Shown in pieces: positions 6,600 to 20,006 of a stretch of DNA of 64,000 nt. Each line of letters begins with the position of its first letter. Positions within the stretch are counted from its first letter, which is position 1. Position numbers and translations under genes: made by a program. The notes under the pieces are model-generated. The model made no database searches. It saw only the letters and a list, made by a program, of their open reading frames with translations, and was not told where the DNA came from. Source of the stretch: a virus; the IMG/VR virus record IMGVR_UViG_3300042463_000409, positions 4,133 through 68,132 of that record, one strand, 5' to 3'.

Positions 6600-6848
6600 A
6601 TGAAAGAGTTTTTACTTAGAATGTTCAGTGACAAGTCTGACGTAAATCAAAAGGCTGTACTAGGTTTTGTATCATTTGTATTAATGGTTCTATATGCACT
6701 AGCAGACATCGTTACAGGTGTGGCAGGTGTTACATTTGTTATCGAACCTATTGTATTCAATGGCTTAATGTATACCGCAATGACTATGTGTGGCATTACA
6801 GGAGTAGAAGCTGTATTTGGTAACAAAAACTTAAAAGAAAAGCAGTAA
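6600..6848 (+). CDS. Putative holin
   Basis: Two TM helices and charged C-terminus; stop overlaps the endolysin start; start set at MKEFLLRMF. Confidence 0.55.
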   Translation: MKEFLLRMFSDKSDVNQKAVLGFVSFVLMVLYALADIVTGVAGVTFVIEPIVFNGLMYTAMTMCGITGVEAVFGNKNLKEKQ

Positions 6849-7444
6849 TGAAACTAGATAAGCTAAAAGGTCATATACCAGATTCTGTAATAGCTCAGAT
6901 TCCATTAGTTTCTGAAAAATTCGGTGTGAATACTCCGTTGCGTTTGGCTCATTTTTTAGCTCAAACAGGACATGAATCAGGTGGATTCAGGGCAACTGCT
7001 GAAAACCTAAACTATAGCGCAAAGGGATTGACTAATATATTCAAGAAGTATTTTACTCCAATAAGTGCCAAAGAGTTTGAACGTAAGCCTGAAAAGATTG
7101 CTAATATAGTTTACGCAAACAGAATGGGCAACGGGAATCAAGCGAGTGGAGATGGCTTTAAATTTAGAGGGAGAGGTTATATTCAATTGACAGGCAGAAG
7201 CAACTATACAGCATTCGACAAATCTGTTGATGATGATATAATTGCTAACCCTGATTTAGTTTCTACAAAATACCCTCTTCTTTCTGCTGCATGGTTTTGG
7301 TCTAAGAATGGTTTAAATGCTATATCTGACCAAGGCGCATCGGAAGATGTAGTAACAAAGATTACAAAGAGAGTTAATGGCGGTGTCATAGGACTTCCTG
7401 ATAGAATTAAACACTTCAAAGAGTATCATCAATTATTATCATGA
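6848..7444 (+). CDS. Endolysin, glycoside hydrolase family 19
   Basis: AHFLAQTGHESGG, FRGRGYIQLTGRSNY, SAAWFW, TKRVNGG motifs. Confidence 0.92.
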   Translation: MKLDKLKGHIPDSVIAQIPLVSEKFGVNTPLRLAHFLAQTGHESGGFRATAENLNYSAKGLTNIFKKYFTPISAKEFERKPEKIANIVYANRMGNGNQASGDGFKFRGRGYIQLTGRSNYTAFDKSVDDDIIANPDLVSTKYPLLSAAWFWSKNGLNAISDQGASEDVVTKITKRVNGGVIGLPDRIKHFKEYHQLLS

Positions 7445-8510: not shown

Positions 8511-9551
8511 TTAAAATATGTGGCTGAATCTTGCAATCTGCCCGTGCAGTTTGTGATGCAAGAAACCTTCAACGGCCTTTGGTGCATGCACATATCCATT
8601 TCTGTGATGCCATGAATCAGCTCCTGACGGACTTCTTAAAGCCTCGATAGTAACTCCCATGATATCTTTTGAACGCTTGTGGTGAATGTGATGAATGTAA
8701 AAGTATTTGTGTTTACAAGAAGACCAGTCAGTTCCTGACTCGTGAGCCATAAGCAATGGTAAATCATTTTCTTTTGCTCCGTCTCCGTGTGTAGTACCTA
8801 TAAGGTTGTTATAGTATCTGTAATATTTTCTGTGGTTGATAGAGCAATTAAATTCAACATTCTTATCTCTACTGAACCAAGACTGAATTGTATCAGCTAA
8901 AAAGAAACCATTTGTGTAATCGTGGTTAGAAGGGTCGTACTGCACAAATACATTAGATACTTCTCTAAGTGTTTCAATAATCTCTACATGCAATCTTTTA
9001 GCAATCAAGAAATTATCATACCACATTCCGTCTGTATCTTGCGGAGTTCCAGATGTAGTCTGTCTTTTAGGTGTATCTACATGCAGGATATCGTTTCCGA
9101 TAACGTATAGTATTTGGTCTACATTGAACGCAGAAGCTTTTTCAAGTATACCATACACACCTTGCATAACTCTATCAACAGCTATCTTGTTATTATACTC
9201 GTCATTTGTTTCAAATGCAGAGCATAGTTTACCGATATGTATATCGGCAGGGTCAATAACCAAAAGATGTGCATCTTCGGGTCTGTTAAACGGAGTTCTT
9301 TGAATCTCTAAATACTCAGGAGCATATTCTTTCATTTCTGATATAATAGCGTCCTTGACGTCATTATAACTTACTTGAGCTCCCTTGACATTAATTGAGA
9401 AGTGTTCTCCTTTGAACCAATAGTGCTTAACATCTTGTACAGGAATGCCTTGTTTTTCGCATTCCTCAGAAAGCGCTTCGTGTTGAGACCTGATATCTTT
9501 TAAGATATCGAATTCGGCCTCTGTAATCCGAGGTCTGATTTCTTTTTTCAT
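8511..9551 (-). CDS. Calcineurin-like metallophosphoesterase
   Basis: DIHIG, GNDILH, SNHD, THGD, HHIHH metal-binding motifs. Confidence 0.8.
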   Translation of the reverse strand: MKKEIRPRITEAEFDILKDIRSQHEALSEECEKQGIPVQDVKHYWFKGEHFSINVKGAQVSYNDVKDAIISEMKEYAPEYLEIQRTPFNRPEDAHLLVIDPADIHIGKLCSAFETNDEYNNKIAVDRVMQGVYGILEKASAFNVDQILYVIGNDILHVDTPKRQTTSGTPQDTDGMWYDNFLIAKRLHVEIIETLREVSNVFVQYDPSNHDYTNGFFLADTIQSWFSRDKNVEFNCSINHRKYYRYYNNLIGTTHGDGAKENDLPLLMAHESGTDWSSCKHKYFYIHHIHHKRSKDIMGVTIEALRSPSGADSWHHRNGYVHAPKAVEGFLHHKLHGQIARFSHIF

Positions 9552-10694: not shown

Positions 10695-12512
10695 TTAAAA
10701 CTTACATTTATGTTTTAGTAATAAATAATCCCTATTAAAAGGAAGCATTCCGTTTTCATCTACAAATTCAACTCCATTATTCATTCTTAATATGCATGGG
10801 TTTCCTTGTGTTGTCGGCTTGCCACCCGTCTCTTTATTTCTAACTTTATCAACAGAAATCTCTGTTACCATCCATTCGTATTGGTCTTTGATTTTCCTAT
10901 GATAAGTCACAAAGTTATCAACCCTATTGTAAAGTGCAGCACCCCCTTCGGTATCTGATGCGTGAGGCATCTTTTGGTTGCCATCTTTATCTCTTTCTCT
11001 TTGAGAATTGGTTGTACTATGTACTGATAAAAATATAGAAGTGTTGTATCTTTTTGTATAGTTGAGCATCTCGCTATATGCCTCGTAGTCGTATATGTAT
11101 TTATTCTTTGCTGCTGTCAACTCCATCTTCAAAGAATTATACGGATCAATAAACAGCCCCTTCAAAGACTTATAGTTCATAAGCACTTTAGAGTGGTCTA
11201 ATATCTCTCCGTATGTGTACATATTATCGGTAGATAGTATAAAGAAGTGCTCATCTACAAACTTTAATGAAGCTGCATGCTCTGAGTCGTTCATACTTGT
11301 AATCTTCTTGCCAACAAAGAACTCCATAATCTTCATCTTAACTGAAGCAGATTGATTCTCTCCTGTGTACAGCATCCAATTCCAATCATAATGCACAGCA
11401 GATAGGAAAATGAGCCACAAATTGACTGTTGTTTTACCAATATGGCTGTGTGCTAGGGACGCATAAAATTCGCCCTCTTTTAGCCTCAGATGGTCATCTA
11501 AATGCTTATACCCAAAAGGCATACCCATAGGTATGAGGCCAGACCTAAACTTATAGATAAAATCATCGTCTTTGGACCTAGAAGAAAGAAAGGACAAGTC
11601 TTCCTCCATAACTCCAATTTCACGTACAGCTTCCCTGTACTCAGATTCAACCTCATGTATAGGCCTGGTCATACCATGACGCAATCCGTCTTCTATGGTT
11701 CTCTTGGCTAGTTGGATGTCGTCTACATCTTTCTTAGAAATCTCGTGAGCAAGAATATCGTAAGCAATATCATATTCTATGTATTTAGTTGCAACATATC
11801 CGCCTAATAATGTAGCTGCCCTAAGTAACGTATGATGCTTTTGTCCATCAGGTGCTAGCCTAATCATTCTAGAGGCTACATCAATTTTTTTATAATCCGT
11901 AAACCCATCTCCCATTTTAACCGAAGATGGCTTTATCTCTTCGTCCTGAACAATATCAAAAAACACACTAGAAGATGTGTTAACGTATATCTCAGGATCA
12001 TAAGATACGTACAATACCCTAGCTATGTTTTTAGCTGTTGGGTCTAAGCCAGGTATCTTTTCTAGTAGAGCTTTGTAGTGCTGCGTATGCTTATTTCCGT
12101 CTCCAATCTTAACTAGACCATGAAGACCTCTACCACTAGAAGAAATCCATAAGGCATATATAAATGGATTATTAATTAATTCTTGCTTTGCCTCATTAAC
12201 ATCTTCGATATCATCAATATCTATTGGCACAAATCCGCTATGCTTTGTCAGAGATTTGTCATCTCTGTAAGACACATACTCTGTTCCGTTGTCTCTTGTT
12301 TTAGTTATAGGCTTATTAAATTCTCCTGAAAATAAAACGCATGGCAGTCCTGACTTTAACTCTCTAATTTTGTTCTCGTCTTTACATTGCCTTATCTCGC
12401 TTACTTTCTCTTTGTATTTGCCTGTTTCTATTCCTTTCAATACCGAACCCAATTCGACAAAGTGGGGCTCATGTATTGTAGTAATGTTTCTAAATAAGGT
12501 TACTCTCTGCAT
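10695..12512 (-). CDS. Primase-helicase (VirE/BT4734-like N-domain + DnaB-like SF4 helicase)
   Basis: KSGLPCVLFSG, DIDD, SSSGRGLHG primase-like motifs; HSHIGKTT Walker A; FIDPYN; KVRNKETGG. Confidence 0.82.
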   Translation of the reverse strand: MQRVTLFRNITTIHEPHFVELGSVLKGIETGKYKEKVSEIRQCKDENKIRELKSGLPCVLFSGEFNKPITKTRDNGTEYVSYRDDKSLTKHSGFVPIDIDDIEDVNEAKQELINNPFIYALWISSSGRGLHGLVKIGDGNKHTQHYKALLEKIPGLDPTAKNIARVLYVSYDPEIYVNTSSSVFFDIVQDEEIKPSSVKMGDGFTDYKKIDVASRMIRLAPDGQKHHTLLRAATLLGGYVATKYIEYDIAYDILAHEISKKDVDDIQLAKRTIEDGLRHGMTRPIHEVESEYREAVREIGVMEEDLSFLSSRSKDDDFIYKFRSGLIPMGMPFGYKHLDDHLRLKEGEFYASLAHSHIGKTTVNLWLIFLSAVHYDWNWMLYTGENQSASVKMKIMEFFVGKKITSMNDSEHAASLKFVDEHFFILSTDNMYTYGEILDHSKVLMNYKSLKGLFIDPYNSLKMELTAAKNKYIYDYEAYSEMLNYTKRYNTSIFLSVHSTTNSQRERDKDGNQKMPHASDTEGGAALYNRVDNFVTYHRKIKDQYEWMVTEISVDKVRNKETGGKPTTQGNPCILRMNNGVEFVDENGMLPFNRDYLLLKHKCKF

Positions 12513-12525
12513 ACATATTGATTTT

Positions 12526-12591
12526 GACCTTGTGCTAGATTCGAACTAACTCCTTCATATAGATGTGCTAACCATTAAACACCAACAAGGT
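12526..12591 (-). ncRNA. tRNA-like RNA with truncated anticodon arm
   Basis: ACCTTGT/ACAAGGT 7-bp acceptor; GTGT/GCAC D-stem with TGG loop; GTTAG-TTCGAAT-CTAGC T-arm; only 14 nt between D- and T-arms. Confidence 0.7.
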
Positions 12592-12679
12592 ACTTAAAGC
12601 GCAATTAGTGTTCCCATTAAATAACTCGTTGATTAATAATAATTTTTTAGTTTATTTACACTAATTGAACTTAAGTTAG

Positions 12680-12949
12680 TTAGAATGGAAGGTCGTCAGT
12701 CTTACTAAAAGACTTTGGAGCTGCAGGTTGAACTGCATCTTTGTTAGGCTTCCATGTATCCAATACAGCAAATGCATTGTATCCGTACTGGTCAGGTGTC
12801 TTTTTATCTTTGATTTCGATATTTACGTAGCCTCTGTCATTTTGATGACTCTTAAGTTCTTCAATAAACTTTTCTACGTTGATACTAATCTTAGTACCAT
12901 ACTGAGTTTTCTTGCATCGTAATGCATTGATGTAAACAGTGTCTGACAT
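12680..12949 (-). CDS. Single-stranded DNA-binding protein (small phage type)
   Basis: Beta-rich 89 aa with C-terminal DDLPF tail, in the replication/recombination block. Confidence 0.65.
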   Translation of the reverse strand: MSDTVYINALRCKKTQYGTKISINVEKFIEELKSHQNDRGYVNIEIKDKKTPDQYGYNAFAVLDTWKPNKDAVQPAAPKSFSKTDDLPF

Positions 12950-12979: not shown

Positions 12980-13010
12980 AAAAAAACCCCCGATGTAGAA
13001 ACACCAGGGG
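12980..13010 (-). terminator. Intrinsic terminator with TGT-TTCT-ACA apex
   Basis: Minus strand CCCCTGGTGT-TTCT-ACATCGGGGG followed by T7. Confidence 0.75.
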
Positions 13011-13737: not shown

Positions 13738-14496
13738 TTATTTTACCCAATATGGCAAAGATATTTCAAAGTCTCCACCTGAATGGAACTCGTATCCCAT
13801 ATCCCAAAGGTTGTTTTGCATACACGAATTAAATAGCATTGCTAATTCAGATACCGTCTTTTTACCTAGGTCAATATACTCTTGACTAGCTTCTGCAACA
13901 ACAATATTGTATGGAGATTTAGTTTCAACGATTAGGTATTTTATAGGTTTATTAGTAACCATATTGTATATGGCAGCTTGTATGTGGTAGCCTCGGTCAT
14001 AGAAATTATTGATGATAGTTTTTGGATGTGCGTCCGAAGCTGTCTTTACTTCTAAAACATATTTATCAGATTCTCCATCTATAAATCCTCTGAATGGAAG
14101 TCCGTGCATCTCTGCCCTGAATTCATTTTCAAATATATTACAATCTGATACCAACTTTTTAAAATGGTCTTGCATCATTATCTTATCTACAAGTCTATTG
14201 GCATCTTCAAACTCAGACTCTTGCACAACGGTCTTACCTTCTGCTTCACTCATAAACTTTGCGTAAGTAGCTTTACCTTCTGTTGTTCTTCTGTCTACGT
14301 TTGGCATCACGGCAAACTGAGAATTAAATTCTTTGGGCTGTAGTAGTAAGCAGTGCAGCATGCTGCCAAATATCATTTCTTTACTAGGCTCTTTGTCTCC
14401 ATTTAGGTATGCAATGTAGTGTGCAGGACTCTTAGCAAACTCTTTTAGTGAAGAGTAGCTTAATGGCCTTTGTTGTAACGTTTCTAATGTTATCAT
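13738..14496 (-). CDS. RecE/exonuclease VIII-like PD-(D/E)XK exonuclease (DUF3799-like)
   Basis: LSYSSLK, FGSMLH, RGFID, EVKT, YHIQAAIY. Confidence 0.85.
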   Translation of the reverse strand: MITLETLQQRPLSYSSLKEFAKSPAHYIAYLNGDKEPSKEMIFGSMLHCLLLQPKEFNSQFAVMPNVDRRTTEGKATYAKFMSEAEGKTVVQESEFEDANRLVDKIMMQDHFKKLVSDCNIFENEFRAEMHGLPFRGFIDGESDKYVLEVKTASDAHPKTIINNFYDRGYHIQAAIYNMVTNKPIKYLIVETKSPYNIVVAEASQEYIDLGKKTVSELAMLFNSCMQNNLWDMGYEFHSGGDFEISLPYWVK

Positions 14497-14772: not shown

Positions 14773-15318
14773 TTATCCATTTTTAATTTTATTTAATTCA
14801 GCTTCAACAGCTTTTGATATGTTATAGAATTGTCTAAGTTTAGCTACATCTAGATTATTTGATTCAGCTCTTTTAACAATAGCACTCCAATCCTTGTGCT
14901 TATCTGTTAGCCATTCTTTCTGAGGAGCCGCTGTATCTCTTGACATAGCCTTCTCTCCATCATCATCTTCGTCTTCAATAACTAGGTTTAATAATCCTGA
15001 TAAGCTATATCTTTTAGCATAAGTTACAGCACTACCATAGTCTTGTGCGGTCTGCTTTTGAACTACGATAGGAAAGTATGATACCATCAATTCTCCTGTC
15101 TCTACATGATATAGATTAGTTTGAACATAAGGAGCTCCGTCTAATACAATAGTTGGTTGTGATATCACTAATCCATTGCGACTTAAGTGAGGGGCTATGT
15201 GTTGCTGAATAGCATCTAATTGCGCATACTTTGATTTAAAGAATGGGTTGTTAGATGACTTTGTAATTGGTTCGCATTGTGATTGAAATAGTGACAATGC
15301 TTTTAATAAATTCTGCAT
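14773..15318 (-). CDS. erf: ERF-family single-strand annealing protein
   Basis: NPFFKSKYA, QDYGSAVTYAKRYSL, EDDDG signature. Confidence 0.9.
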   Translation of the reverse strand: MQNLLKALSLFQSQCEPITKSSNNPFFKSKYAQLDAIQQHIAPHLSRNGLVISQPTIVLDGAPYVQTNLYHVETGELMVSYFPIVVQKQTAQDYGSAVTYAKRYSLSGLLNLVIEDEDDDGEKAMSRDTAAPQKEWLTDKHKDWSAIVKRAESNNLDVAKLRQFYNISKAVEAELNKIKNG

Positions 15319-15337: not shown

Positions 15338-15420
15338 TAGTCAGTGTAGGATTCGAACCTACATTTAGGAGACTGATGTATTTAATCTCAGTTTTCGTCT
15401 ACCATAACGACTTCCTGACT
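15338..15420 (-). ncRNA. tRNA-like RNA with aberrant anticodon arm
   Basis: AGTCAG/CTGACT acceptor; GTC/GAC D-stem with TGGTA; ACTGA/TCAGT stem with 11-nt loop; GTAGG-TTCGAAT-CCTAC T-arm. Confidence 0.65.
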
Positions 15421-15581
15421 ATATCGGTTGTTCTGGCACAACCATAAGCCCCTTTGTTTTCTTTATGCGTATGAACAAATGCTGCTACTATAACACACTT
15501 GGCAAGAAAACTATGTCTAACCCAACCGCAAGGCATCGGTACTAGGGCTTTCTAAACTATAGTAGCATTTATTACTTATTG

Positions 15582-15589
15582 CAAAACTA
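15582..15589 (-). promoter_or_regulatory. -7 promoter element upstream of hairpin/tRNA-like/erf
   Basis: Minus strand TAGTTTTG. Confidence 0.5.
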
Positions 15590-15593
15590 CAAA

Positions 15594-15743
15594 CTATTTA
15601 AATAATATTCTAAATAATTTTTTGAATTCTGCTATTATATCGTATATCACACCTGAGTATATTAATCCCCATACCCATACTAAATATGGAATGAAGAATG
15701 TAAATATAAATATCAGTGCTCTCTCTTTTTTATCTTTTACCAT
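15594..15743 (-). CDS. Small membrane protein
   Basis: MVKDKKERALIFIFTFFIPYLVWVWGLIYSG...; start uncertain (track extends it to 15857). Confidence 0.4.
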   Translation of the reverse strand: MVKDKKERALIFIFTFFIPYLVWVWGLIYSGVIYDIIAEFKKLFRILFK

Positions 15744-16077: not shown

Positions 16078-16183
16078 AAAGAAAAAGCCCACCAAAGTAG
16101 AGATTTGATGGGCATGATTCAAAAAGGTGTTAGCCTTCTAAAAGCACACCCGATAACGTATCTCTACTACCTTATCGGATTTG
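16078..16183 (-). ncRNA. Kissing-loop small RNA / attenuator
   Basis: Two hairpins with complementary 7-nt loops GTAGAGA and TCTCTAC; second hairpin followed by TTTTTCTTT; consensus promoter directly upstream. Confidence 0.65.
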
Positions 16184-17829: not shown

Positions 17830-18837
17830 TTATATATTTTGTTTAGTAAATAAATCTATCGCCTTGAATATATTGTATGCTACCTGTGGTACAATAGCAT
17901 TCCCGTAAGCCTTTATTGATTCCATTCTCCACTTAGAAAAGGTAATAGAGTCCAATTCTCTGGGAAGCCCATCATCTCCTCCACAAATAGGGGGTTTAGT
18001 TGGGAAGTCTTGGAACTTGGCTCGTATATTTTCGCTATCTCGTCCGTTAAGTTGAATTTGCCTCTGTCTCTCGATGCGTTGCCTCTCGATTCTTGCGCCT
18101 TCGGTGTCGGTAACATACCTAGCTTCGCCATTTGCTTCAATGGGTTCTGCAAGTTGACCCCCTTTGCTTTGTGACGAGCTTTTGCTGCTAGGAATGTCTC
18201 CTCCTTGCGAGCCGTGTTCCAGTCGTATGCCGAAGGTGTCGGTAGTAATGATACTACTTGAGTAGCTAGGTTTGGCATCGTCGTTCCGTTGGGATACTTC
18301 TCCATCCTGTCCTTGAACTTGCCTAGATCCTGTACCTCTTCTCTTGTCGTTGGAGTAAGCAACAAACCAAACTCTGTCCCTTCTGTGCGGGGCGTTGACG
18401 CTTGCAGCTGGAATAATAAACGGTTGTACTTCATATCCTTGGCTTTCCAAGTCAGAGCACACCTCATGGAAGACCAATCCTCCATTCCAACTAACAAGCC
18501 CACGAACGTTTTCGCCCACGACGAATGTTGGTTGGACCTCTTTAATAACTCGTAGCATTTCAGGAAAGAGGTGTCTTTCATCGGCCTTACCAAGACGCTT
18601 TCCTGCGACTGAGTATGGTTGACAGGGGAATCCTCCTGTAAGTACATCAATTGTTCCTCTGTGAATAGAGAAATCTGTTTCGGTAATGTCATTGTATGAT
18701 ATTGATTTTGGAAAATGATATTTTAATACTCGCTGACCAAACGGATTCCATTCGCAGTGGAATACATTATCCCATCCCATCCATTGTGCAGCTACATCAA
18801 ATCCACCTATGCCAGAAAACAAACTAGCGTGATTCAT
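17830..18837 (-). CDS. DNA (cytosine-5) methyltransferase, large/alpha polypeptide
   Basis: Motif I LFSGIGG, IV GGFPCQ, VI GENV, VIII HRRDRVW, X YGNAIVP; motif IX absent from this frame. Confidence 0.9.
   Translation of the reverse strand: MNHASLFSGIGGFDVAAQWMGWDNVFHCEWNPFGQRVLKYHFPKSISYNDITETDFSIHRGTIDVLTGGFPCQPYSVAGKRLGKADERHLFPEMLRVIKEVQPTFVVGENVRGLVSWNGGLVFHEVCSDLESQGYEVQPFIIPAASVNAPHRRDRVWFVAYSNDKRRGTGSRQVQGQDGEVSQRNDDAKPSYSSSIITTDTFGIRLEHGSQGGDIPSSKSSSQSKGGQLAEPIEANGEARYVTDTEGARIERQRIERQRQIQLNGRDSENIRAKFQDFPTKPPICGGDDGLPRELDSITFSKWRMESIKAYGNAIVPQVAYNIFKAIDLFTKQNI
17913..18692 (-). CDS. Nested alternative-frame ORF: C5-MTase small/beta polypeptide (TRD-like repeats + motif IX)
   Basis: 259-aa open frame inside the MTase gene; three LL/ML-(P)TP repeats; QLNPLFVEEMMGFPENWT matches motif IX; true start uncertain. 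Confidence 0.7.
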   Translation of the reverse strand: MTLPKQISLFTEEQLMYLQEDSPVNHTQSQESVLVRPMKDTSFLKCYELLKRSNQHSSWAKTFVGLLVGMEDWSSMRCALTWKAKDMKYNRLLFQLQASTPRTEGTEFGLLLTPTTREEVQDLGKFKDRMEKYPNGTTMPNLATQVVSLLPTPSAYDWNTARKEETFLAAKARHKAKGVNLQNPLKQMAKLGMLPTPKAQESRGNASRDRGKFNLTDEIAKIYEPSSKTSQLNPLFVEEMMGFPENWTLLPFLSGEWNQ

Positions 18838-19505: not shown

Positions 19506-19626
19506 TTTGTTTGTTTTTGTATGGACAATGGCGGCATCCACGATTGCAGCAATACCCTCTGTCGAGAAGGAATTGCTCCGTGAATACCACCATTCCATTT
19601 TCTAAATAATAATCTAAGGTTTCCAT
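19423..19626 (-). CDS. DUF5522-like Cys-rich protein
   Basis: DYYLENGMVVFTEQFLLDRGYCCNRGCRHCPY. Confidence 0.75.
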   Translation of the reverse strand: METLDYYLENGMVVFTEQFLLDRGYCCNRGCRHCPYKNKQNEPIKEAIRDIETRETSDELRPRDTES

Positions 19627-20006
19627 TCTAATTCTTCGGTTATCCAATCAGCTTTCTCTCGGAATATGTCGTTAGTCTTATATAAGTCATAATACGTGCT
19701 GATGTTGTGTATAATAGTCGTGTGGTCTCTTGATGACAATTTTTTGCCTATGTCAACTAACGTCCACCCTAATCTAACCTTAACGTTATAACAATATATA
19801 CGCCTAGCGTCTACCAATTCTTGCTTTCTTCGGGTAGCCTTCATCTCGTCAAATGTGATATTTGTAACATTGGTTATTGCATTTACAATATCATCGTGAG
19901 TTACCTTCCCACTTGATAGCCTGATTAACCTAGTGAATCCCTTCGGCAAATCTTTACCTCTTATCCCAGGGTATATGTATGGGTTTATTAATTTCATGCT
20001 GCTCAT
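19614..20006 (-). CDS. Stand-alone DnaA C-terminal (domain IV) HTH protein
   Basis: RRKQELVDARRI...TLVDIGKKLSSRDHTTIIH. Confidence 0.8.
   Translation of the reverse strand: MSSMKLINPYIYPGIRGKDLPKGFTRLIRLSSGKVTHDDIVNAITNVTNITFDEMKATRRKQELVDARRIYCYNVKVRLGWTLVDIGKKLSSRDHTTIIHNISTYYDLYKTNDIFREKADWITEELEWKP

Follow-up and report, generated by a model that had tools for sequence, protein, structure and literature searches.

Phage tRNA genes are usually explained either by codon supply or by the replacement of tRNAs that anticodon nucleases have cut. Within a tRNA, the acceptor stem, the T arm and the D arm with its elbow are the parts read by RNase P, RNase Z and the CCA-adding enzyme. In the eukaryotic nucleus, mascRNA (MALAT1) and the MEN-beta tRNA-like RNA are small, possess a poor anticodon arm and are excised by RNase P and RNase Z, and this excision defines the ends of the flanking RNAs; the upstream RNA is protected there by a triple helix.

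Plant mitochondrial t-elements direct cuts by RNase P and RNase Z at mRNA ends (Forner et al. 2007, PMC1920247). As that paper presents them, they are non-canonical cloverleaves with a conserved T arm that lie beside genes in polycistronic transcripts, their ends are mRNA ends made by the two enzymes, and the excised element can persist. In the mitochondria of the eustigmatophyte Vischeria, the tRNA-X1, tRNA-X2 and tRNA-X3 loci are tRNA-derived, occupy fixed intergenic positions and vary almost only in the anticodon arm; in some of them the stem is truncated and the anticodon loop is missing. The authors of that bioRxiv preprint judge the loci to be kept by selection for a non-decoding role (PMC13060386). 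Host RNase P also cuts phage or operon transcripts at tRNA-like features, namely phage C4 (the antisense RNA of P1/P7), M3 RNA, and his and other operon mRNAs (PMC11143913). In the open-access literature, supplements aside, we found no anticodon-less or tRNA-like processing elements in phage operons.

We analysed a stretch of phage DNA of 64,000 nt (the window), which spans positions 4133-68132 of an IMG/VR virus record that is 68,132 bases long and has direct terminal repeats; the public runs that contain the record are lake, river and other freshwater metagenomes. An anticodon-less tRNA-like element (element 1) stands ahead of its primase-helicase gene, and a second tRNA-derived element (element 2) ahead of its Erf recombinase gene (Table 1). 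mascRNA and the MEN-beta RNA have no homology to the phage element. Like t-elements, element 1 is a non-canonical cloverleaf with its acceptor stem and T arm on the coding strand beside a gene, the position by which t-elements are recognised; element 2 shares this arrangement. It differs from them in its full D arm and elbow, its strong sequence constraint and a conserved upstream motif; t-elements are organellar and their ends were mapped experimentally, whereas the phage element is known here from its sequence. The tRNA-X loci resemble elements 1 and 2 in where they vary, but they are mitochondrial and derive from a duplicated trnK, and the part of the preprint devoted to them describes no terminator swap. 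The C4, M3 and operon substrates are not three-armed bodies, and none is described, in the part of that account that covers them, as replacing a junction terminator.

Table 1. Positions of the two tRNA-derived elements and of neighbouring features in the window
Feature	Positions	Strand	Remarks
Primase-helicase gene, 605 aa	10695..12512	-	ATG at 12512; PF08800 BT4734-like_N, E=2.8e-12
A-rich leader, 13 nt, to helicase ATG 12512	12513..12525	-	without Shine-Dalgarno
Element 1, 66-nt anticodon-less tRNA-like	12526..12591	-	coding strand of both flanking genes
Discriminator C of element 1	12526	-	no encoded CCA after it
Acceptor stem of element 1, 7 perfect pairs	12591-12585 with 12533-12527	-	
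T arm of element 1, 5-pair stem (one G.U), loop TTCGAAT	12550-12534	-	
Middle of element 1, 14 nt replacing position 26, anticodon arm and variable loop	12564-12551	-	
D arm of element 1, 4-pair stem (one G.U), 10-nt loop with GG	12582-12565	-	18 nt
AT-rich spacer, ssb-like stop to element 1	12592..12679	-	fast-evolving outside motif
Motif, two TTATT(T)AAT direct repeats, end ...TTATTTAATGGGAAC	12610..12640	-	18 nt 5' of element 1
ssb-like gene, 89 aa, C-terminal DDLPF	12680..12949	-	called ORF
Terminator-like hairpin and T run upstream of ssb-like gene	12987..13010	-	
PD-(D/E)XK nuclease gene	14496..13738	-	
Erf recombinase gene	15318..14773	-	
Element 2, second tRNA-derived element	15338..15420	-	RF00005 18.7 bits; ends 19 nt before Erf ATG 15318

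The preliminary description had placed element 1 between an ssb and a primase-helicase gene, and this position is borne out, with 13 nt between the discriminator and the ATG. Both genes belong to a minus-strand block that extends from ~27,000 down to 8,500. The 89-aa gene has no match in Pfam or PHROGs; its name comes from the DDLPF C-terminal tail alone, which we take to be a hallmark of ssb, and a DDLPF-tailed gene occupies the same position in relatives. The Atlas clusters nearest to the helicase have DnaB_C, their bacterial members are Bacteroidota, and a Bacteroidota host is weakly indicated. An A-rich leader that lacks a Shine-Dalgarno sequence is typical of Bacteroidota. Elsewhere the window encodes a C-5 cytosine DNA methylase (17830-18837, -), a small protein with a DnaA C-terminal HTH domain (19614-20006, -), a DNA repair exonuclease (PHROG 704; 8511-9551, -) and a glycoside hydrolase 19 lysin (6848-7444, +). 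GC-rich hairpins with T runs lie at 12987-13010 (-) and 16087-16113 (-), inside the same-strand early gene block. The former stops ~28 nt short of the ssb-like gene and so leaves little space for a promoter; both may be RNA-end marks and not full transcription stops.

The three-armed tRNA body with a collapsed 14-nt anticodon region, as first described, was recovered both by reading the arms from the sequence and by alignment to the Rfam tRNA model RF00005. A 2-nt linker separates the acceptor and D stems, and the 14-nt middle compares with 22-23 nt in tRNAs. The Rfam alignment retains the acceptor, D and T arms, deletes the anticodon arm and leaves the middle with a 2-bp stem and a 5-nt loop. 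The minimum-energy fold of element 1 is the cloverleaf (-13.9 kcal/mol), at a folding energy that is unremarkable (z=-0.93; 35/200 shuffles fold as well). Element 1 is unable to decode, and with no anticodon it serves neither codon supply nor anticodon-nuclease replacement.

Standard detection passes over this form. The preliminary description had anticipated a pseudo or undetermined call from tRNAscan-SE or ARAGORN; ARAGORN, the finder that was run, reports neither a tRNA nor a tmRNA in the window and makes no call on element 1. RF00005 aligns it at 17.8 bits against a gathering cut-off of 29 bits, and it is absent from the matches of the whole-genome search. It was rejected as a canonical tRNA on this score and for want of a 5-bp anticodon stem with a 7-nt anticodon-bearing loop, and as the tRNA-like domain of a tmRNA on the ARAGORN result and on its length of only 66 nt with contiguous arms. 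With no PF00589 integrase match across the 68-kb record and both tRNA halves present, an attP copy of the 3' part of a host tRNA was rejected as well.

We then used a descriptor of our own, consisting of a 7-bp acceptor stem, a 4-bp D stem with GG in the loop, and a 5-bp T stem with loop TTCRANN. Element 1 is its one match in the window, and none arose in 300 first-order Markov simulations of the window. Over 2.56 Mb of fetched loci it found 63 distinct matches, 51 of which have a middle of 22-23 nt. Among these 63, a 14-nt middle is limited to a group that we call clade A (the window's own record and five IMG/VR contigs, with helicases 95-100% identical), and an 18-nt middle to clade B (nine IMG/VR contigs, helicase 52% identical to that of the window). 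An unrelated IMG/VR contig carries at L140:818-886 (+) a tRNA-like sequence with a 20-nt middle, a 4-bp anticodon stem and the loop GATGATT.

The 18-nt D arm of element 1 occurs identically in 20 IMG/VR contigs, comprising the five of clade A and 15 with ordinary phage tRNA genes (10 Gly, 5 Pro) that belong to unrelated phages. The tRNA-Gly(UCC/GCC/CCC) genes share this D arm and have a similar T loop, and against a model built on clade A they score 42-52 bits versus 30-35 bits for the clade B elements. They differ from element 1 in their full 17-nt anticodon arm, variable loop, G1-C72 acceptor pair, U73 and encoded CCA, and they sit in tRNA clusters, whereas element 1 stands before a helicase gene. 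These likenesses make a clear case for tRNA ancestry of element 1. BLASTN of the 2.8 kb around it against 50,697 deposited phage genomes gave no matches. Exact-pattern scans of IMG/VR with its 3' and 5' halves returned the five clade-A contigs and six unrelated non-tRNA loci, and in these scans no full-length tRNA had its acceptor stem.

Next, we compared element 1 with its surroundings within clade A. The short form is present in 6/6 records, in three distinct versions. Between the window and the contig L003, 3/66 positions of element 1 and 0/13 of the leader differ, against 26/88 (30%) in the spacer, which also has indels, 41/267 in the ssb-like coding sequence and 73/196 (37%) at four-fold sites of the helicase gene (Fisher tests of element 1, p=3.7e-8 versus four-fold sites and p=5.2e-5 versus spacer). 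In X12, a DNA contig from an independent lake study, element 1 is unchanged, and the 88-nt spacer has seven substitutions and two indels. The changes seen in clade A are G9 to A in the linker and A to G at the equivalent of position 26, together with two that keep pairs, G.U to A-U in the anticodon stub and G.U to G-C in the T stem; the stub has changed at 1/13 positions. An A1 to G change in the X20 allele gives a G.U that is still paired, and U72 to C in L005 gives an A.C mismatch at pair 1:72. Judged by this comparison, element 1 is under purifying selection, and its low divergence rules out a decaying pseudogene. The earlier argument against random decay therefore holds, resting now on 3/66 versus 37% divergence.

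We also investigated what relatives carry at this junction. A protein search with the helicase yielded 26 IMG/VR and 36 metagenome loci. A GC-rich hairpin occupies the junction in 18/23 of the IMG/VR loci and in 28/29 of the metagenome loci, the 29th being a clade-A contig. A T run comes after it in nearly all cases and stops 10-20 nt short of the ATG; three hairpin loci with a short T run were left unclassed by the script. Relatives with such a terminator-like hairpin have helicases 70-78% identical to that of the window. Those at 58-61% mostly have a bare spacer of 20-45 nt with neither hairpin nor tRNA-like sequence, so the helicase gene needs no such signal, and at 47-51% another gene abuts the helicase gene. 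In the window itself there is no GC-rich hairpin with a T run at 12513-12679 (-), and element 1 was accordingly rejected as an intrinsic terminator. A sub-threshold RF00005 match in G013 (22.8 bits) proved to be a GC hairpin flanked by an A run on one side and a T run on the other, terminator-like and not tRNA-like.

A quick maximum-likelihood tree (IQ-TREE) of 40 distinct helicases nests clade A in hairpin-bearing lineages (supports 95 and 100) and places clade B as a long outgroup; the hairpin label requires at least two changes on this tree whatever the root. From this nesting, the module of motif and tRNA body was probably swapped in, and it looks like an exchangeable cassette that replaces a terminator-like hairpin. 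Two hairpin-clade relatives have different true tRNA genes at what is apparently one and the same slot, Leu-TAA in G007 and Arg-TCT in G015 (L090:1501-1576 and L091:1501-1574), and the sequence after both is similar. This Leu-TAA/Arg-TCT slot suggests that phages of this group exchange tRNA genes at set junctions.

Clade B was found through a 15-mer of the spacer, followed by a pattern that combined the 15-mer with the T loop. Its layout runs from the stop of an 89-aa DDLPF gene through an AT-rich spacer, a motif ending ...TTATTTAATGGGAAC, 16 unrelated nt, a tRNA body and a further 16 nt to the helicase ATG. The body is 67-68 nt long and anticodon-less in 9/9 contigs. Its anticodon stem has 5 bp and is capped by 2 nt where a 7-nt loop would be, in practice four pairs and a tetraloop, and a normal 5-nt variable loop follows. 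RF00005 scores it at 44.6-48.7 bits in the five genomes searched, above the 29-bit cut-off; ARAGORN makes no call on it, and its minimum-energy fold is not the cloverleaf. The clades have different discriminators (C or U) and are unlike in acceptor pairs 2, 4 and 5; the discriminator is followed by AAA in clade A and CTC in clade B, so that CCA is encoded in neither. One contig name of each clade carries the same IMG/VR sample number. Ordinary tRNAs as homologues, or a lone deletion allele, had been set out as what would speak against the preliminary description; instead, there is no ordinary-tRNA homologue, and the copies are anticodon-less in 6/6 clade-A records and 9/9 clade-B contigs.

Covariation had been proposed as a check across relatives, and it is present between the clades but not within clade A, where three distinct sequences with no both-sided change are too few to inform. 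When both clades were fitted to the clade-A model, and thus to the structure, with one deep split between them, 99.1% of cells paired and 8/19 pairs had changed on both sides. This score was reached by 0/500 shuffles, and controls with slid partners gave 0-1 both-sided pairs. In a hand-made register table of the 16 acceptor, D and T pairs, six had changed on both sides and two on one side, and none was broken except the A.C of L005. An alignment of the clades by MAFFT misaligned them, and the RNAalifold result obtained from it was discarded. By alignment score, the A and B bodies resemble each other no more closely than each resembles unrelated phage tRNAs (of 115 comparisons, the A-B score ranks 19th for A and 15th for B, with a tRNA set biased towards the D arm of element 1), so the both-sided changes may reflect two captured tRNAs and not compensation in a single lineage. 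Either one body diverged with compensation, or two tRNAs came to lie behind the same motif and each lost its anticodon loop; under either origin, selection for a tRNA body without an anticodon is implied. In GTDB genomes the combined motif and T-loop pattern gave 54 matches; the five that survive a check of T stem and acceptor are either ordinary tRNAs or chance matches, and by this pattern no host or prophage copy of the module is present there.

The 15-mer core of the upstream motif is identical in clades A and B, and the 16-18 nt that separate the motif from the element are unrelated. The motif is present once in the window, and one lake contig has an additional G in its G run. Alone, the 15-mer gives at least 117 IMG/VR matches, mostly in unrelated coding sequence. 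It does not match a sigma-70 scan, and by eye it is unlike TAnnTTTG, the promoter box of Bacteroidota. Two other candidates in this region were rejected by eye: a sigma-54-like spacing in the spacer of the window is absent from L003, L005 and clade B, and a short ORF from an ATG inside the motif has variable stops and a frame change in L005 and was not taken as a gene.

Element 2 came from an RF00005 search of whole related records. It has an intact T arm and a D arm that we take to be of the tRNA-Leu kind; its seventh acceptor pair is G.A in the window. RF00005 scores its homologues at 45.5 bits in G003, 38.3 bits in the clade B genome G019 and 21.5 bits in G002. Homologues are located at L092:1501-1582, L043:~1105-1250 and L392:106-206 (-). 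The acceptor stem, D arm and T stem are retained across clades A and B, and the T stem covaries among lineages (GTAGG/CCTAC, GCAGG/CCTGC, ACAGG/CCTGT). The region from the D to the T arm, by contrast, is unrelated in sequence and length between relatives. It measures ~30 nt in the window and likewise in G003, whose copy ARAGORN calls as an odd Phe-AAA, and 48 nt in G019; the form in G002 is of ~146 nt, with a ~33-nt insertion in the D loop. The genes that follow element 2 also differ between relatives. With elements 1 and 2, the phages thus carry two families of tRNA bodies that can do without their anticodon region; both end 13-22 nt ahead of a start codon. Upstream of element 2, ~170 nt of non-coding sequence (15421-15600, -) is highly conserved within clade A. 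It has no match to an Rfam family, contains TAGTTTTG, a match to the Bacteroidota -7 box, and ends in a hairpin, GGTTGTGCCAGAACAACC, that recurs in clade B and in all lineages seen.

We tentatively favour the reading that element 1 is a selected, non-decoding tRNA-like RNA that is cut from the early transcript by host RNase P and RNase Z. A tRNA gene would have been remade into a non-decoding body that keeps the acceptor, D and T arms and the elbow and has lost the anticodon stem-loop, a part needed only for decoding and for anticodon-directed enzymes. Element 1 would be co-transcribed with the early replication genes on the minus strand, and cleavage at both borders is expected because the parts read by host tRNA-processing enzymes are kept. 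RNase P would cut at the 5' end (12592/12591), and RNase Z, or an equivalent 3' pathway, after the discriminator (12526). These cuts would separate the ssb-like message from the helicase message, leave the helicase mRNA with its 13-nt A-rich leader and release a tRNA-like RNA of ~66 nt. A discriminator without CCA after it makes a transcript an RNase Z substrate, an encoded CCA being an anti-determinant. Position, strand, lack of a CCA and the exchange with a terminator-like hairpin all agree with this reading. As element 1 stands in the slot that holds a hairpin in most relatives, it would form RNA ends without stopping transcription. The preliminary description had offered two functions for a non-decoding mimic, a processing signal for the helicase mRNA and a decoy for tRNA-targeting defence nucleases or tRNA-binding enzymes. 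Both remain candidates, but a decoy for anticodon nucleases is unlikely, there being no anticodon loop to cut.

One line of expression data bears on these cuts. In the X20 RNA run, assembled contigs, which do not resolve RNA ends, cover 12483-12633 and 12699-12842 of the 901 bases compared at depth 2. The contig over the first of these intervals (151 nt) continues uncut through element 1 into the flank on either side, and may represent a precursor or DNA carry-over. Against a pure cutting signal stands the retention of the D arm, both loops and the stub, when an acceptor stem and a T arm nearly suffice for cutting.

Such retention of the whole body would also fit a role for the released RNA. 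The ~66-nt RNA could itself be the functional product, a decoy, sponge or inhibitor of a protein that recognises tRNAs by their acceptor end or elbow and does not read the anticodon, with cutting as its maturation only; we consider this possible but somewhat doubtful. Candidate targets are defence toxins that modify tRNA 3' ends, and host tRNA-processing or tRNA-binding enzymes. The entire body is conserved in clade A, including the D arm, D loop, T loop and stub; the module is an accessory insert, absent from most relatives and probably exchanged, as counter-defence genes are; and two clades have different bodies, both without an anticodon loop. Yet no tRNA-related enzyme was found among the 25 distinct ORFs scanned with Pfam, the differences in discriminator and acceptor pairs 2, 4 and 5 leave the clades no shared acceptor identity, and anticodon nucleases are impossible as a target. 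A broader version, which we regard as rather unlikely, is that anticodon-less bodies form a class of trans-acting phage RNAs, matured by RNase P, RNase Z and CCA addition, which occupy or mislead proteins that bind the elbow or the acceptor end; the two clades would have arrived at this form independently, from different tRNAs, in a slot that is otherwise a terminator's.

Were the motif a promoter, element 1 would head the helicase mRNA instead of separating two cistrons. It could then be an uncleaved 5'-UTR structure whose cloverleaf sets stability or translation. In keeping with this arrangement, the distance from motif to element is held at 16-18 nt in both clades, 13-16 nt lie between the element and the ATG, the leader is invariant in clade A, and the X20 contig is uncut. 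We nevertheless judge it unlikely. The motif, single-copy in the window, matches neither the sigma-70 scan nor, by eye, the TAnnTTTG box; a plain hairpin would suffice, which leaves the tRNA loops and the elbow unexplained; and RNase Z should remove a tRNA-shaped 5' end.

It is very unlikely that the locus acts as DNA, with the motif repeats, the AT-rich spacer and the structured stretch forming a replication origin or a protein-binding site. The spacer and the two TTATT(T)AAT repeats would suit such a site, the helicase gene adjoins it, and one of the phage's proteins has a DnaA C-terminal HTH domain. The G.U stem pairs, however, are mismatches on the other DNA strand, and together with the coding-strand orientation they fit an RNA and not a DNA cruciform; moreover, the loops keep the tRNA consensus, the design recurs in element 2 at an unrelated junction, and the module is missing from the majority of relatives.

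A neutral relic of a phage tRNA gene, its anticodon arm partly lost in one deletion, would agree with the clear tRNA ancestry and with the A.C mismatch of L005, but is highly improbable given the 3/66 changes, when the figure is 37% for four-fold sites (p=3.7e-8) and 30% for the spacer next to it, and given the short or anticodon-less form in every record of both clades (6/6 and 9/9). A working decoder with an aberrantly short anticodon arm, for example a 3-bp stem and the loop AUAUGAA with U second and A sixth of its 7 nt, can be dismissed, because 2-3 stem pairs and no variable loop would by established tRNA geometry keep the loop from the decoding site, clade B has 2-4 loop nt and no anticodon, and ARAGORN calls neither the clade A nor the clade B elements.

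What this locus contributes is the conservation measured against a neutral yardstick, the second clade, and the swap with a terminator-like hairpin. Cumulatively, 1) the 3/66 conservation, 2) the occurrence in two distant clades and 3) the interchange with a hairpin point to phages using the tRNA shape for something other than decoding. As tRNA finders and Rfam thresholds miss the form found in the window, such elements are probably undercounted. As a cutting signal, element 1 would mean that phages shape their early operons by the same tRNA punctuation as organelles; as a decoy, it would be a new kind of counter-defence RNA.
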